Source of the DNA: Candidatus Hydrogenedentota bacterium
GTDB lineage: Bacteria; Hydrogenedentota; Hydrogenedentia; Hydrogenedentales; JAEUWI01
NCBI GenBank assembly: GCA_034669905.1
Contig: JAXMOL010000016.1
Location: 1 to 64,000, forward strand
Length of the DNA: 64,000 bases
Direction: 5' to 3'
Below the pieces are notes generated by a model. That model ran no database searches. It saw only the letters and a program-made list of their open reading frames with translations, and had not been told where the DNA came from. Numbering within the stretch: position 1 is the stretch's first letter; the number at the start of each line of letters is the position of its first letter. Positions 3,165-29,861 of the stretch are shown piece by piece. A program made the translations under genes and the position numbers.

Positions 3165-4250
3165 ATGCCCCTTAACCCACGTTTCGCCGCAGCCCTGCTC
3201 GGGACGGCGTCCGCTCTTGCCCTTCCCAACGCCGCGGTGGCCGACACCAACTCGGGCTATCTCATCCACGATATGGCCCGGGAGCAGGCCCCGGTGGTCA
3301 CCCCGGGAAAGGAATTCGAGGCCCCATCCGACGCCATCGTCCTTTTTGACGGCACGGACCTCTCCGCCTGGCGCACGGAAGACGGGGGCACCCCGAAGTG
3401 GAAGGTGGAGAACGGCTACTTTGAAGCGGTCTCCGGTTCCGACGACATTTTCACCAAGGAAGGCTTCGGCGATTGCCAGCTCCACATCGAGTGGGCCTCC
3501 CCGGCCGACCCTGCGGGTAAGGACGGACAGAACCGCGGCAACAGCGGCGTCTTCTTCATGGAGAAATACGAAATCCAGGTGCTCGATTCTCACAACAACC
3601 GCACCTATGCCGATGGCCACGCGGGCTCGGTCTACGCCCAGTATCCGCCCCAGGTGAACGCCACCCGCCCACCGGGAGAATGGCAGCGCTATGACATCAT
3701 CTTCCACCGTCCCCGCTTCCATGAAGATGGCACGGTGAAACAGCCCGCCCGCATGACCGCCCTGCTCAATGGCATCCTCGTGCAGGACGGCGTCGAACTG
3801 ACCGGGCCCACCAGCTGGCTCATGCAAAAGCCCTATGAGAAACACCCGGACAAGATGTCCATCAAACTGCAGGACCACGACTCGCCGGTCCGCTTTCGCA
3901 ATATCTGGATTCGCCCCCTCAGCCAGCCAGAACACCTGAAGCCAATCCCCATGAAGAAGCGGGAGCACAAGGTGGCCCTGAGCCCGGCCCAGCTCGACCG
4001 CTTCGTCGGCAGCTATGACCACAATCAGGGGGACAAACCCGTGCCCTTTATCGTCGTCCGCCGGGAAGACAATCAGCTCTTCGCCACGGTCCGGGACAAG
4101 CGCGAGTGGGCCCTCTTCGCACAGTCCGAGACGGAATTCGTCTTCGACAACTTCGACGGCACGTTGACCTTCAAGTCCGACGCCAACGGCGCGGTCACGG
4201 GGGTCGATTTCCTCGTGGGCCTCAAGCCCAAGTTCGAGAACAAGCTGTAA
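3165..4250 (+). CDS. DUF1080 (3-keto-disaccharide hydrolase-like) secreted protein with C-terminal DUF3471-like domain
   Basis: Signal peptide; LFDGTDLSAW, GNSGVF, YEIQVLD, LQDH..VRFRNIWIRPL motifs; C-terminal 'LSPAQLDRFVGSY' domain; AAGGAG RBS. Confidence 0.9.
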   Translation: MPLNPRFAAALLGTASALALPNAAVADTNSGYLIHDMAREQAPVVTPGKEFEAPSDAIVLFDGTDLSAWRTEDGGTPKWKVENGYFEAVSGSDDIFTKEGFGDCQLHIEWASPADPAGKDGQNRGNSGVFFMEKYEIQVLDSHNNRTYADGHAGSVYAQYPPQVNATRPPGEWQRYDIIFHRPRFHEDGTVKQPARMTALLNGILVQDGVELTGPTSWLMQKPYEKHPDKMSIKLQDHDSPVRFRNIWIRPLSQPEHLKPIPMKKREHKVALSPAQLDRFVGSYDHNQGDKPVPFIVVRREDNQLFATVRDKREWALFAQSETEFVFDNFDGTLTFKSDANGAVTGVDFLVGLKPKFENKL

Positions 4251-25294: not shown

Positions 25295-25373
25295 TCCCCT
25301 CCCTGGAGGGGCCGGGGGTGGGTCGCGTCACGAAAAGGTCGTAGACCCACCCCTAACCCCTCCTTGGAGGGGA
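25295..25373. repeat. REP-like inverted palindrome pair
   Basis: TCCCCTCCCTGGAGGGGCCGGGGGTGGGTC ... GACCCACCCCTAACCCCTCCTTGGAGGGGA. Confidence 0.8.
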
Positions 25374-25503: not shown

Positions 25504-26481
25504 TTGTCTGAACCCATCCGCTGGGGCATTATCGGCACCGGCCATATTGCCAATACTTTTGCTACCGCCATTGCCGCCCTCGACGACGCCGTCATCCAGG
25601 CCGTTGGCTCCCGCACCGAAGCAAGTGCCAATGCCTTCGCCGACAAATACGGTATCGCCAATCGCCACGGCTCCTATGAAGCCCTGGCCAACGACCCCGA
25701 AATCGATGCGGTCTATATTGCGACGCTGAATTCCCTCCACCACGACAACAGCATCCTCTGCCTCGAAGCGGGTAAGGCGGTCCTGTGCGAAAAGCCCTTT
25801 TGCATCAACCGCGCCCAATCGGAAGAAGTCATCGCGGTGGCCAGGCGGGAAAAGAAGTTCATCATGGAAGCCATGTGGACCCGATTCATCCCGGCGCTCC
25901 AGCAGGCCATGGCCTGGATTGACAAAGGCCGCATTGGCGAGGTGCGCATGGTGCAAGCCAACTTCGGCTTCCGCTGCGATGATGCTCCCCTCTTCGACCC
26001 GGAACTGGGTGGTGGTGCCCTCCTCGATGTGGGCATCTACCCCATCACGCTCGCCCATATGGCCTTCCGAAAGCTCCCCACGGAAGTCCGCAGCCTGGCT
26101 TACCTGGGTCGCAATGGCGTCGACGAACAGTCTACCTATCTCCTGGGCTTTGAAGGCGGCGGCCAGGCCCTCCTCGGCAGCGCGATTCAGACCAATACCC
26201 CCTACGACGGCTACATCATGGGCACGGAAGGCATGATTACCATTCATGACTCCTTCTGGAACGCCACCAAGGTCAGCCTCACGAAAGACGAGAAGGTCGT
26301 CGAATGCAAAGAACTCCCCCATATCTGCAATGGCTATGAATATGAAGCCATGGAAGTGCACCGCTGCCTCCGCGAAGGCAAGCTCGAAAGCGACATCATG
26401 CCCCACGAAACGAGTCTCGAACTCATGGGCCTGCTGGACGGCATCCGCGCAGACTGGGGCCTGAAATACCCGATGGAATAA
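25504..26481 (+). CDS. Gfo/Idh/MocA family oxidoreductase (paralog 1)
   Basis: RWGIIGTGHIA, LCEKP, MEAMWTRF, GGGALLDVGIYP; TTG start after AGGAG. Confidence 0.94.
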   Translation: MSEPIRWGIIGTGHIANTFATAIAALDDAVIQAVGSRTEASANAFADKYGIANRHGSYEALANDPEIDAVYIATLNSLHHDNSILCLEAGKAVLCEKPFCINRAQSEEVIAVARREKKFIMEAMWTRFIPALQQAMAWIDKGRIGEVRMVQANFGFRCDDAPLFDPELGGGALLDVGIYPITLAHMAFRKLPTEVRSLAYLGRNGVDEQSTYLLGFEGGGQALLGSAIQTNTPYDGYIMGTEGMITIHDSFWNATKVSLTKDEKVVECKELPHICNGYEYEAMEVHRCLREGKLESDIMPHETSLELMGLLDGIRADWGLKYPME

Positions 26482-26487
26482 CGGGGT

Positions 26488-26726
26488 GGGGACTGCCTCG
26501 CCGTAGGGCTCGTGAATGAGTAGCTGAAAACGCCTTGGCGGAAAGAGCCCACTTCACGGAAGCGCGGCCCTATAAGACAGGCGAGGCCGTCCCCCTCTTG
26601 AAATCGACGTGAACCATCCAGAGGGGGACAGCCCCGACGTCTGAATATCGCTCTATACACAACGACCTATGTCTCGCCCACGCGACCCCGCCGCGCTATC
26701 TTGCGTAAAGCGTCGGTGCAGTCCCC
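26488..26726. repeat. ~238-bp composite palindromic (BIME/REPIN-like) repeat, copy A
   Basis: GGGGACTGCCTCGCC...GGCGAGGCCGTCCCC + CTCT..AGAG + GGGGACAGCCCCGACG...CGTCGGTGCAGTCCCC. Confidence 0.9.
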
Positions 26727-26822
26727 GGGGACTGCCTCGCCGTAAGGCCCGCATGCCAGCATCGTGAACACCTTGGCGGAAAAAGTCTGCTGCACAGCAA
26801 CAACGCGCAATTAGACAAGCCA
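26727..26822. repeat. Partial, degenerate copy B of the composite repeat
   Basis: Begins GGGGACTGCCTCGCCGTA and retains CCTTGGCGGAAA, then decays. Confidence 0.75.
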
Positions 26823-26842
26823 ATCCTGTTGGAGTATCAATC

Positions 26843-27796
26843 GTGAGCCAAAGCCCCCCACAACATAGCGAAACGACTCGCACGCGCTATCGGGAGCGTT
26901 TGGCGAAGGCCCTGCAATACATCGAAGAAAACCTCGACCAACCCCTCCGGCTGGAAGATATCGCTACCGCCAGTTTCTTTTCCCCCTTCCACTTTCACCG
27001 CATCTTTCAATCGTTGATGGACGAATCGGTGAACGACTACGTGGTTCGCCGCCGCATGGAAGCGGCCGCCCACCTCCTCGTCTACGAACGTCACCTCCGC
27101 GTGACCGACGTGGCCGCCACCGTGGGCTACTCGTCCACGGCCAATCTTTCGAAAGCCGTGAAACAATATTTCGGCGTCTCTCCCAGCGCCATCCGTAATC
27201 CGTCGGATGAGACCATTCGCAAGATTGGAAAACTCTCCAGCAAATACGGAAAAATCTTTGACCCCCGCGATCTCTATCCTCGAGAAGTGCCCAATGGTGG
27301 GCCCAATCACAACGAGGATAAGCACATGCACGTAGAAGTCATTGAACGAGAAGAAGCCGCTGTCAGTTACCTGAGCAGTCCACAGGGCTATCTCCAGGAA
27401 TCCATCGAAGCCACCTGGACAAAGCTCATCGCCTGGGGAAAATCGGCGGGGGTCCCAATCGCGGAACAGCAATACTATGCCCTGTGTCACAGCAACCCCG
27501 CAGTAACCCCCGTGGAAAAGTGTCGTTACGATGCGTCGCTCGTCATCCCGCCGACGTTGACGGTCAACGCACCCTTTTCCCGCTCGGTCATTCCGGCGGG
27601 TCGCTACGCACGGGTCTATTACAAGGGCCCCTCCGAAGGCACCAGCCAGGCCCATCTTGCCATCTTCAACACCTGGCTACCTGAAAGCGGATTCGAGCCC
27701 GACGATTACCCCTCTATGGAGCACTACCTCAACGATGTACGAGAAGACGGATTCGTGGAGATGGAAGTCTTTCTAAAATTAAAAGACTTGGTGTGA
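26843..27796 (+). CDS. AraC family transcriptional regulator with C-terminal GyrI-like effector domain
   Basis: YIEENL..LEDIA...FSPFHFHRIF HTH; KCRYDA, IPAGRYA, WLPESG GyrI-like motifs. Confidence 0.93.
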   Translation: MSQSPPQHSETTRTRYRERLAKALQYIEENLDQPLRLEDIATASFFSPFHFHRIFQSLMDESVNDYVVRRRMEAAAHLLVYERHLRVTDVAATVGYSSTANLSKAVKQYFGVSPSAIRNPSDETIRKIGKLSSKYGKIFDPRDLYPREVPNGGPNHNEDKHMHVEVIEREEAAVSYLSSPQGYLQESIEATWTKLIAWGKSAGVPIAEQQYYALCHSNPAVTPVEKCRYDASLVIPPTLTVNAPFSRSVIPAGRYARVYYKGPSEGTSQAHLAIFNTWLPESGFEPDDYPSMEHYLNDVREDGFVEMEVFLKLKDLV

Positions 27797-27813
27797 GGCG
27801 GGGACGAAATCGC

Positions 27814-28051
27814 GGGGACTGCCTCGCCGTCGGGCCCGTGAATGAGCAGTTGAAATGCTTTGGCGGAAAACGCCTACTTCACGGGTGCGTGGCCCCCTAA
27901 AACAGGCGGGGCCGTCCCCCTCTTGAAGTCGACGTGGGCTTTCCAGAGGGGGACAGCCCCGACGTCCGAGTACTGTTCTCTACCCACCACCCTCTGTCTC
28001 GCCCACACGGTCCCATCGCCCTACCCGGCTCATGGCGTCGGTGCAGTCCCC
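27814..28051. repeat. 238-bp composite palindromic repeat, copy C
   Basis: Same termini and internal hairpins as copies A and D; first ~155 bp nearly identical to copy D. Confidence 0.93.
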
Positions 28052-28052
28052 G

Positions 28053-28280
28053 CTACGCTACTTCAACGCGCTTTCGAAGTGCTTGCTTTGCCTCGCTCCA
28101 ATCAACAACGCGCTCTTCACCCGCATCAACCCGCGCCGCCGTATCCGCAAGCGCCTTCTCATGCCATGGTGGAGATTCCAGACCTTCGACAGATTGGGAA
28201 AGGTCCGCCCATAGGGCTTCCATGGTCTGGAGTTTTTCCTGCCGCGACATTTGTGCGATTTGCTCTTCGCTTATCATCAT
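28053..28280 (-). CDS. Putative addiction-module antitoxin component (TIGR02574-like), orphan
   Basis: MSRQEKLQTMEALWADL..SPPWH..L...DWSEAK pattern typical of this family. Confidence 0.82.
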   Translation of the reverse strand: MMISEEQIAQMSRQEKLQTMEALWADLSQSVEGLESPPWHEKALADTAARVDAGEERVVDWSEAKQALRKRVEVA

Positions 28281-28456
28281 GCTGTGCGGACCTCTTTGTT
28301 GCCTTCGTATTGGTGAATTGGTCTTAACCGGACCGAAATTTACCTATCGGTGCCCATCGAGCTTGGAAGGGACTCTACTGTTTCCATTCTACTCGAAAAC
28401 CTGCATCGAGTCGAGCGTCTGTTCGGAAAGAGGACGCGCCCAAAAAAATCAACGTC

Positions 28457-28503
28457 GGGTGCCACCCTCAAACGGAGGAACGCAGCGGGGGAAGTTTGTG
28501 GGT
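28457..28503. repeat. Third copy of the GGGTGCCACCC REP-like unit
   Basis: GGGTGCCACCCTCAAACGGAGGAACGCAGCGGGGGAAGTTTGTGGGT matches 4755-4801. Confidence 0.85.
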
Positions 28504-28566
28504 GCGTTGGTGTCAAGCATTCGGCGCTACCCCCTCCGTAAGTCGACGTAGGCTTTCCGGAGGGAC

Positions 28567-28804
28567 GGGGACTGCCTCGCCGTCGGGCCCGTGAATGAGC
28601 AGCTGAAATGCTTTGGCGGAAAACGCCTACTTCACGGGTGCGTGGCCCCCTAAGACAGGCGGGGCCGTCCCCCTCTTGAAGTCGACGTGGGCTTTCCAGA
28701 GGGGGACAGCCCCGACGTCCGCATTTCCTTCTGTACCTGACACCCTTTGTATCGCCCACACGGCCCCGTCGTGTTTCCCGGCATATGGCGTCGGGGCAGT
28801 CCCC
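28567..28804. repeat. 238-bp composite palindromic repeat, copy D
   Basis: Same structure as copy C; preceded by a partial central module (AAGTCGACGTAGGCTTTCC) at ~28530-28566. Confidence 0.93.
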
Positions 28805-28874: not shown

Positions 28875-29861
28875 ATGGCGAAAACCTATCGTTGGGGTAT
28901 CATCGGAACGGGCAATATTGCGACCCAGTTTGCAACGTGTCTGAAGGTCTGTGACAACGCCGTCCTCCACGCGGTGGGCTCCCGGAGCCAGGCCAGTGCG
29001 GACGCCTTCGGCGATAAATTTGATATCCCCACCCGCCACGCCACCTATGAGGGGCTCATCAACGACCCGGAAGTCGATGTGGTCTATGTCTCTACGCCCC
29101 ACAGCCTCCATAAAGAGAACAGCATTGCCTGCCTGAAAGCCGGTAAGCCCGTTCTCTCCGAAAAGCCCTTCACCCTCAACGTCTCCGAATCGAAGGAGGT
29201 CATCGCCGTCGCGAAAGAAACGGGCCTATTCCTCATGGAAGGCATGTGGACCCGCTTTTTCCCGGCCATTAAACAGGTGGAATCCTGGATAGCCTCCGGT
29301 GCCATCGGCGAACCCCGCATGGTCCGCTGTGATTTCGGCTTCTACATGGAATATGGCGAGCGTAACCGACTGTGGGATCCCGCACTCGGTGGGGGAAGCC
29401 TGCTTGATGTGGGCATCTACCCCATCAACCTGGCTTCCATCGCTTTTAAAGACGCGCCCGAAACCATTCAGGGGGCTGCCCATATCAACGCGCAGGGCAT
29501 CGACGAGCAGGCGGCCTTCGTTCTCGGCTACAGCGGCGGACGCCTCGCCACCCTTTCGAGCGCGGTGCGGGCCCAGTCCGACTGGAATGCCTACATCTAC
29601 GGCGAAACGGGCATGATTAAGATTCATGAGTGCTTCTGGCGTCCCCATGCCGCCACGCTGATTCCCCGGGAAGGGGACCCGACGACCTTTGACGAGCCGC
29701 TGGAGAGCATCGGATTCGAGCACGAAATTCGGGAAGTCATGGGCTGTCTCGATGCGGGCCTCACCGAATGTCCCACCATGCCCCATTCCCGCACGCTGGA
29801 GGTCATGGGCACCATGGACACCTTGCGGAAGCAATGGGGGCTGAAATACCCCGGCGAATAG
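28875..29861 (+). CDS. Gfo/Idh/MocA family oxidoreductase (paralog 2)
   Basis: RWGIIGTGNIA, SEKP, MEGMWTRF, GGGSLLDVGIYP, ends WGLKYPGE; ATG 28875 after AGGAG. Confidence 0.94.
   Translation: MAKTYRWGIIGTGNIATQFATCLKVCDNAVLHAVGSRSQASADAFGDKFDIPTRHATYEGLINDPEVDVVYVSTPHSLHKENSIACLKAGKPVLSEKPFTLNVSESKEVIAVAKETGLFLMEGMWTRFFPAIKQVESWIASGAIGEPRMVRCDFGFYMEYGERNRLWDPALGGGSLLDVGIYPINLASIAFKDAPETIQGAAHINAQGIDEQAAFVLGYSGGRLATLSSAVRAQSDWNAYIYGETGMIKIHECFWRPHAATLIPREGDPTTFDEPLESIGFEHEIREVMGCLDAGLTECPTMPHSRTLEVMGTMDTLRKQWGLKYPGE

Follow-up and report, generated by a model that had tools for sequence, protein, structure and literature searches.

The closest described relatives of the repeats studied here are the TIRYTs, a class named in 2013. 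As stated in the text of the article that introduced them, TIRYT genes are flanked by TIRs carrying the consensus GGGGWSAS, and these TIRs are also dispersed as dimers and clusters (PMC3733652, Di Nocera, De Gregorio and Rocco 2013). TIRYTs have been equated with TnpA-Y1 subclass 2.1 and with RAYT group 1 in the text of a later survey (PMC6006769, Quentin et al. 2018). The key motifs of subclass 2.1 are given there as NHVH, W[EQ], YIELNP and an SS proximal tail (PMC6006769, Table 1), and subclass 2.1 TIRYTs are described, in the passages that we cite, with a C-terminal HTH extension. These passages do not report that an enzyme of this subclass cleaves or mobilises its repeats. For the TnpA-REP of E. 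coli, the article text documents C|T cleavage, the requirement of a mismatched stem, strand transfer and local amplification (PMC3333891). According to the text of a further study, REPINs are linked to RAYT groups 2 and 3, and group 1 is described there without abundant flanking 16-mers (10.1101/119735). Finally, CGTC-tagged REPs are presented in the 2013 article text as short palindromes without a transposase (PMC3733652).

In this study, we follow up one locus in a window of 64 kb, the whole stretch of DNA that was analysed, from a genome that we call G000. A first-pass annotation of this window had reported 238-bp direct repeats separating single genes, and proposed a BIME/REPIN-like gene-capture platform or a repeated structured RNA as a candidate for an undescribed system. 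It suggested a genome-wide catalogue of the unit, an analysis of covariation, and searches for a RAYT-type gene flanked by GGGGAC[AT]G repeats and for excised circles. Integron cassette arrays, to which the locus had been loosely compared, are defined by attC and IntI. We report that the repeat belongs to a genome-wide family that is probably of the TIRtron/TIRYT kind, and that the genes lying between its copies are mainly bystanders, inherited in place in close relatives.

The repeat unit and its neighbouring genes

The basic part of the family is a site of 15-16 bp with the consensus GGGGAC[A/T/G]GC[A/C][C/T]CG[A/C]C. Four such GGGGAC[A/T/G]GC sites make up a unit, arranged as two inverted doublets of ~104 bp with a CTC...GAG linker between them. 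As first described, three full direct copies (U1, U2 and U3; 239, 238 and 238 bp, with a pairwise identity of 81-90%) and two partial ones are present at the locus (Table 1). One of the partial copies consists of a single end site with its spacer, the other of what is left of a linker. The unit boundaries drawn at first also look right, the T-type ends being turned toward the host DNA and the A-type ends toward the linker, and the distances to the stop codons, reported as 1-17 bp, were measured as 6, 17 and 1 bp. The three-hairpin structure proposed at first needs a correction: the central stem competes with the two long-loop stems because both use the same inner sites. The predicted fold, whether computed for DNA or RNA, is nested instead, with the central stem paired and the two outer ends paired with each other. 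This folding beats all 200 shuffles both ways, with a z-score of -3.2 as DNA and of -4.6 as RNA.

Table 1. Features of the repeat locus (positions in the window)
Feature	Position	Strand	Details
gfo1	25504-26481	+	Gfo/Idh/MocA oxidoreductase, conserved left flank; Pfam PF01408
Unit U1	26488-26726	+	left doublet 26488-26594 (CGCC variant)
Unit U1, inner parts	linker 26595-26623; right doublet 26624-26726	+	linker CTC...GAG; right doublet of CGAC variant
Partial copy after U1	26727-26820 (end approximate)	+	T-type site and spacer, without partner site
araC	26843-27796	+	AraC-family regulator with GyrI-like domain; PF12833, PF06445
Unit U2	27814-28051	+	left doublet 27814-27919, linker 27920-27948, right doublet 27949-28051
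Antitoxin	28053-28280	-	remnant of type II toxin-antitoxin pair; PF09720
Copy of unrelated repeat family	28456-28510 (about)	.	GGGTG[CG]CACCC core; depth spike
Partial copy before U3	28530-28566	+	relic of linker stem
Unit U3	28567-28804	+	left doublet 28567-28672, linker 28673-28701, right doublet 28702-28804
gfo2	28875-29861	+	second Gfo/Idh/MocA oxidoreductase, conserved right flank

Each interval had been said to carry one gene. This holds for the AraC/GyrI-like gene, and the PF09720 antitoxin, the single match to this family in G000, was also confirmed, but the second interval is not clean: the toxin gene that belongs to the antitoxin is deleted and a copy of an unrelated repeat is present. 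The lost gene, ParE-like and of ~290 bp, is found in the related genome G007 and at the metagenome locus L128. In G000 it is deleted near 28067, and the deletion does not end at a repeat. Contigs of the sequencing runs X5 and X6 carry an extra stretch at the position of the toxin.

Five of 8 genus relatives have gfo1 immediately next to gfo2 (gap of ~45-75 bp), so the insert between them is accessory. These five genomes have no strict doublets and also lack the inserted genes; gain of the repeats and gain of the genes are therefore not fully separable here. G007 and L128, the one close locus among 10 in a metagenome scan with araC, hold the same araC, toxin and antitoxin in the same order, with a different number of doublets. 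Single copies of araC occur in 3 of 9 genus genomes, always next to gfo1, and in one of them, G004, the gene stands at the same place without flanking repeats or any repeat relic. At fourfold sites, araC is identical to its G007 counterpart at 95 of 135 positions (70%), as compared with 82-88% in the flanking genes.

A genome-wide family of inverted doublets

In G000, the end-site pattern has 279 matches, against 16 in one shuffle, and these sites group in 105 clusters on 52 of the 102 contigs. They form 151 inverted doublets of 102-107 bp each, which nearly always combine one T-type with one A/G-type site. The genome has 14 full T-A-linker-A-T units in which the linker measures up to 60 bp, 11 of them outside the 64-kb window. 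Neighbouring doublets whose A-type ends point at one another across a CTC...GAG linker number 28 pairs at ≤3 kb and 0 beyond 3 kb, a distance at which T-type ends face each other 15 times; orientation was called by program, and some of these calls may be in error. Since A-type ends meet across linkers and full units recur, the 238-bp unit represents a genuine level of organisation. ORFs of ≥300 aa fully contain just 2 of the 151 doublets, versus 68% of random 104-mers.

The spacers keep a fixed length (~72 bp) and carry a central GG motif, and are 34% identical among 105 non-redundant doublets. Folding is near-absent in them (mean z -0.4 in the first 60 of the 105 non-redundant doublets) and they share no common fold. 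In the end sites, pairing ends at position 16, with positions 7 and 10 as fixed mismatches. Positions 11 and 13-16 covary, the observed pairing being reached by 0-1 of 1000 shuffles of copies that are related and not independent; covariation was thus found in the 16-bp end sites, but none through the body of the element. CTC follows the A-type end in 122 of 151 doublets. A CRISPR-like reading, with the spacers as captured sequences, was also considered and dropped: 17 spacer matches lie outside the called doublets, 16 of them beside another end site and 1 weak.

Between clusters, 22 intervals are shorter than 5 kb, for 6.8 expected, and by the ORF lists from which gene content was taken many of them contain either ordinary genes or none that is clear. 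Another repeat family, unrelated and with a GGGTG[CG]CACCC core, has 137 copies in G000, 26 of which lie within 300 bp of a doublet, in zones that make up 0.9% of the genome. As these repeats crowd the same gaps, the gaps look like permissive sites.

The strict doublet pattern is present in 3 of 41 related genomes; for G006 and G008 it was the only pattern used. The single end site occurs 114 times in G004, 197 times in G005 and 1-3 times in each of G001-G003. A scan of all species genomes gave at least 80 loci, all from three assemblies among the matches listed. The named relatives are Candidatus Hydrogenedentota, and by them G000 is judged to be one as well. Altogether, the 238-bp repeat is part of a genome-wide family of inverted repeats of the intergenic, small and mobile kind.

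A tyrosine transposase bracketed by the repeats

It had first been noted that no integrase or transposase is present. None is found near the array, but a Y1_Tnp gene with family repeats on both sides exists on contig C58 (C58:44956-45582). This is a RAYT-type gene flanked by GGGGAC[AT]G repeats, and the only one among the 15 Y1_Tnp matches in G000 that has this repeat family within 1.5 kb. The BIME/REPIN-like character first proposed for the repeats is accordingly borne out by a family that is genome-wide, intergenic and brackets a Y1 transposase gene. Inverted GGGGACAG sites lie at -142 and +120 of the gene, in agreement with the published TIR consensus GGGGWSAS, and T-type sites at -40 and +20. 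The inner ends of the repeats read CGTC, and a CGTC-tagged REP family was rejected because such REPs lack a transposase whereas the present repeats bracket one.

The C58 gene is an open frame with all catalytic motifs intact. Its protein scores above the cut-off for PF01797 (HUH/Y1 tyrosine transposase), and reaches 76.2 on NF047646, for which the cut-off is 80. The motifs NHVH, WQ, YVEVNP and an SS tail (WSS) form the subclass 2.1 signature, and their residues show little or no variation across 69 aligned members. The structure model (pLDDT 92) has TnpA-REP 4er8 as its top fold match (18% identity). None of the 69 aligned members has a Pfam match to an HTH; the model ends in four C-terminal helices of high confidence, with no HTH entry among the fold matches listed.

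A sister protein in G005 shares 69% identity with the C58 protein (tree support 92/93), and its gene is bracketed by the CGCC variant of the end site, the dominant variant of that genome. Moreover, the paralogs on C54, C25 and C30 each have an end-site variant of their own, so that end-site variants track transposase lineages. In G007 (94% complete, 710 contigs), no relative of the C58 transposase was found at E≤1e-20, despite 69 strict doublets.

Age of the spread and local turnover

The left spacers of U2 and U3 are 97% alike, while left spacers at the same position are 65-76% alike between genomes, below the 82-88% identity of fourfold sites in the flanking genes. Copies at the locus are closer in sequence to adjacent ones than to those at corresponding positions in G007, which amounts to local homogenisation.

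We compared the sites occupied in G000 and G007. Both genomes are occupied at 20 of 22 close two-sided sites, and the two "empty" sites are not clean; the other clusters comprise 42 without a two-sided ortholog, 18 with flanks too short and 6 that are distant. Clean insertion footprints were not found among close relatives, and recent jumping is not evident from these sites. The spread mostly predates the split of G000 and G007, since 20 of 22 sites are shared and G007 keeps the family with no transposase found. A distant locus, L153 (~73% flank identity), weakly suggests insertion of a whole unit without long duplication.

Contigs of several sequencing runs bear on variation at the locus. In run X2, one low-depth contig skips U2 and the antitoxin exactly between direct copies, which speaks for loss only. 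Backward joints in X5/X6 and X8, which might have indicated the excised circles that were sought, are explained by the likeness of neighbouring units (joints with sides of less than 30 bases were ignored), and no circle emerged. These runs are not independent: X1-X4 come from one study, possibly the source of the window, and X5 and X6 seem to be a single data set.

Discussion

We demonstrate here the anatomy of the unit, its intergenic spread, the bracketing of a transposase gene, lineage-matched site variants and local turnover. On these grounds, we consider it likely that the unit is a gene-less element of the TIRtron/TIRYT class, copied across the genome by the C58 tyrosine transposase. By analogy with E. 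coli TnpA-REP, the enzyme would bind the mismatched end sites on single-stranded DNA. The candidate cut, an analogy taken from another subclass, would fall at the conserved C|T that borders each A-type site on its outer side (GTCCCC|CTC). Rejoining of the strands could then lead to unit insertions that lack a long target duplication, and to tandem duplication of doublets. At the present locus, units would have settled, prior to the divergence of G000 from G007, in the gaps that flank araC and the toxin-antitoxin pair; copies next to each other have since been homogenised, and as direct repeats they would let the DNA between them drop out. A fixed cargo with a varying number of doublets, in G007 and L128, counts in favour of this explanation. 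Against it count the 69 strict doublets of G007 with no transposase relative found, the 20 of 22 close sites filled in both genomes, the NF047646 score under its cut-off and the lack of a Pfam HTH match, though subclass 2.1 is described with such a domain.

Part of these observations would also suit a family that spread long ago and now varies only by host recombination, slippage and gene conversion, the transposase being uninvolved. Most close sites are indeed common to both genomes, G007 retains the family with no transposase found there, and deletion between direct repeats that are 90% identical needs no special enzyme. We nonetheless regard this as unlikely: the end sites are nearly invariant around spacers that are 34% alike at fixed length, implying that a binding protein still selects for these sites; the C58 frame is open with all catalytic motifs present; and the variants follow the transposase lineages. 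The unit could otherwise be selected as RNA, in the form of a repeated structured RNA or a 3′ regulatory element, as folding better than shuffles (z -4.6), a place just after stop codons and covariation at end-site positions 11 and 13-16 (0-1 of 1000 shuffles) might suggest. We find this very unlikely. A search of Rfam at E≤1 yielded three unrelated hits, all weak and far below gathering scores; pairing stops at position 16, is broken by the fixed mismatches at positions 7 and 10, and is followed by spacers without a shared fold; the copies are related, hence not independent, and a protein site used at both ends would be just as likely to change symmetrically. With no credible Rfam match and spacers that are so diverged and barely fold, the structured RNA proposed at first is not supported. 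A side effect on mRNA ends may exist.

The other initial proposal, gene capture, holds that a unit-gene-unit stretch is a passenger version of the transposase module, which the tyrosine transposase would cut out and insert at units so as to build an integron-like array. We judge it quite unlikely, although several observations lend it some appeal. The gfo1 and gfo2 flanks adjoin in 5 of 8 relatives, all five without a strict doublet; araC and the antitoxin have T-type ends on both sides, an arrangement that matches exactly that of the transposase gene; at fourfold sites, araC has diverged further than the flanking genes; and the X2 contig joins 27812 to 28566 through 37 shared bases, with the antitoxin uncovered. 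Elsewhere in G000, direct doublets enclose an additional copy of a core gene (55% identity; C3:5697-6943), at a site where G007 has a toxin-antitoxin fragment, which we take to be MazEF-like, and where G004 and G005 have no gene. An orphan ORF of 179 aa stands inside a linker (C5:88475-89014), with one 25% match among 8 relatives. BIMEs have moreover been proposed as able to sequester genes, as the article text puts it (PMC3333891). At the array, however, cargo and order are identical in G007 and L128, and araC is single-copy, always beside gfo1, and in place in G004 with no repeat relic. Among 8 other loci with toxin homologs, 0 adjoin this family, and other variants occur near two of them. 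Among the 22 short intervals between clusters, many contain ordinary genes or none that is clear; repeat-free relatives carry homologs of two further bracketed genes, at C37 and C65; unrelated repeats are crowded into these gaps as well (26 of 137 copies within 300 bp of a doublet); and the X2 join, a single low-depth assembled contig, fits ordinary recombination or misassembly. A gene-capture platform or cassette array is thus not supported at this locus, while elsewhere in the genome a weak case for capture persists.

TIRYT transposases and four-site units are in the same measure improbable as a non-integron gene-capture system with array turnover. We would give only a small chance to the corresponding route, by which a host or foreign gene between two units, arranged like the transposase gene itself, would leave as a single-stranded circle with one unit and re-integrate at another. 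Such a system would cover the C16 array, the swap of content at C3, the linker orphan at C5 and the X2 loss. If true, cassette-like arrays would have a second origin alongside integrons. The phrase "gene capture" was not found among the literature matches listed.

Returning to a transposase-copied TIRtron/TIRYT element as the likely explanation, G000 offers a large and clean example of a class whose name, TIRYT, is rare in the literature that we searched; among the matches listed, no mention of Hydrogenedentota was found in the literature on such repeats. It indicates that a group-1-like RAYT can own an abundant repeat family, and that repeats of this family turn over locally and can delete the DNA between copies. 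It is also of value as a test system: it provides several transposase paralogs, each with a particular end-site variant, together with a defined four-site substrate and a C|T as candidate cut site. With such paralogs and substrate, the specificity and cleavage of a subclass 2.1 enzyme become directly testable.

Comparison with known systems

With integron arrays, the locus shares direct repeats between single accessory genes, including a toxin-antitoxin pair. It differs from them in that the repeats are genome-wide, genes lie in both orientations and the cargo is fixed in close relatives, with no attC cores and no integrase over cut-off. Indeed, as had been noted at first, no attC GTT/AAC cores (RYYYAAC / GTTRRRY) are found in the three units plus 15 bp on each side, and the integrase model TIGR02249 gives 9 partial matches in this 95.7% complete genome, 0 of them above cut-off. 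An integron cassette array was rejected on these grounds and because the cargo is not shuffled in G007 or L128.

Another comparison is with E. coli REP/BIME and TnpA-REP. In both cases two different sites form inverted pairs with mismatched stems, well-conserved tandem copies occur per locus with a copy number that varies between strains, and a C|T lies beside the site, as described in the article text (PMC3333891). In contrast to the E. coli sites, as presented in that text (Ton-Hoang et al. 2012, PMC3333891), the present sites have no GTAG tag; they are barely palindromic alone and pair with a partner ~72 bp away. The C58 enzyme belongs to a different transposase subclass and shares 18% identity with 4er8. 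With Pseudomonas REPIN/RAYT systems, as the article text depicts them, the family shares extragenic doublets at fixed spacing, tandem clusters and a distinct repeat type beside each transposase paralog (PMC3116915, Bertels and Rainey 2011), but here a group-1-like enzyme goes with an abundant repeat family. Canonical REP/RAYT of groups 2 and 3 was rejected in view of a consensus, GGGGAC[AT]GC[AC][CT]CGAC, without GTAG and of an NF047646 score below cut-off (76.2 < 80), though the extragenic inverted doublets at fixed spacing are a trait of canonical systems. The family works like REP/BIME-RAYT; it is neither a canonical REP family nor an integron array.

Finally, the comparison with TIRtrons and TIRYTs shows that the system is not undescribed, as had been suggested, but belongs to a class that was named in 2013. 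Several features are particular to the family studied here: its 279 sites, two alternating site types, a fixed spacer of ~72 bp with a central GG, and a four-site unit with a CTC...GAG linker, all of them set apart on the basis of the article text, whose figures and supplements may show similar layouts. The C58 family also differs in that no Pfam HTH is detected in it. The likeness lies in a Y1 gene bracketed by inverted repeats with a GGGG[AT][CG]A[CG] motif, in repeats dispersed as dimers and clusters (151 doublets in 105 clusters on 52 of 102 contigs), and in the NHVH, WQ and YxExNP motifs and SS tail of the C58 protein. By its Y1 gene, its GGGGWSAS repeats, its motifs and its dispersal, the family fits the TIRtron/TIRYT type.

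Doublet and unit structure

A GG motif lies in the middle of the doublet spacer, at positions 48-49 counted from the T-type end, in 79 of 105 non-redundant spacers. Its surroundings are often TGGCGAA-like, and the spacers also display a faint periodic bias with a period of roughly 10 bp. This GG motif is possibly a third protein contact.

In the window's own genome, 32 of the 105 repeat clusters are located less than 600 bp from a contig end. The end-site repeats therefore break this assembly, and repeat copy numbers counted in it are lower bounds. The units of the window are hybrids, in which a left doublet carrying the CGCC site variant is joined to a native CGAC doublet. The CGCC variant is scarce in this genome (five exact T-type copies) and is the dominant form in the related genome G005.

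Features in the window, elsewhere in its genome and in relatives
Feature	Position	Remark
Left doublets with CGCC site variant	window 26488-26594, 27814-27919, 28567-28672	
30-bp inverted repeat, separate	window 25295-25373	upstream of gfo1
Second repeat family copy	window 28456-28510	core GGGTG[CG]CACCC
179-aa membrane-like ORF	C5:88475-89014 (L082)	within linker of a unit
TIRYT paralog genes	C54:10392-10997, C25:68749-69360, C30:83891-84511	loci L054, L062, L069
IS200-like transposase element	L039 126-578 (G005)	own palindromic ends
Antitoxin-like gene, frameshifted	L037 about 3230-3540 (G004)	downstream of araC

Genes between and beside the repeats

At one site, C3:5697-6943 (locus L106), the content between direct doublets differs from that of loci L116, L117 and L118. 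In the window's genome this interval holds a conserved hypothetical gene of 384 aa, present there as a second copy. In G007 it holds other repeats and part of a toxin-antitoxin pair that is truncated at an end site, and in G004 and G005 it holds no gene. The membrane-like ORF on contig C5 has a lower GC content, gave no match in a Pfam search and has a single match (25%) among eight relatives.

Around gfo1 and araC, the IS200-like element of G005 directly follows the first end site 3′ of gfo1, and the antitoxin-like gene of G004 is a different gene and does not match the antitoxin of the window. The inverted repeat upstream of gfo1 probably represents either a terminator or a member of a further repeat family.

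Other repeats and TIRYT paralogs

The commonest 16-mers of the window's genome belong to runs of GAAGGT/GAAGGC hexamers (up to 539 copies), which probably encode Glu-Gly repeats. The second repeat family counts 137 copies, 26 of them within 300 bp of a doublet, and several are housed in linkers. Finally, end-site variants differ by TIRYT paralog: the three transposase genes each have their own, with 25-58 copies across the genome, and the C54 gene is flanked by one full four-site unit on either side.
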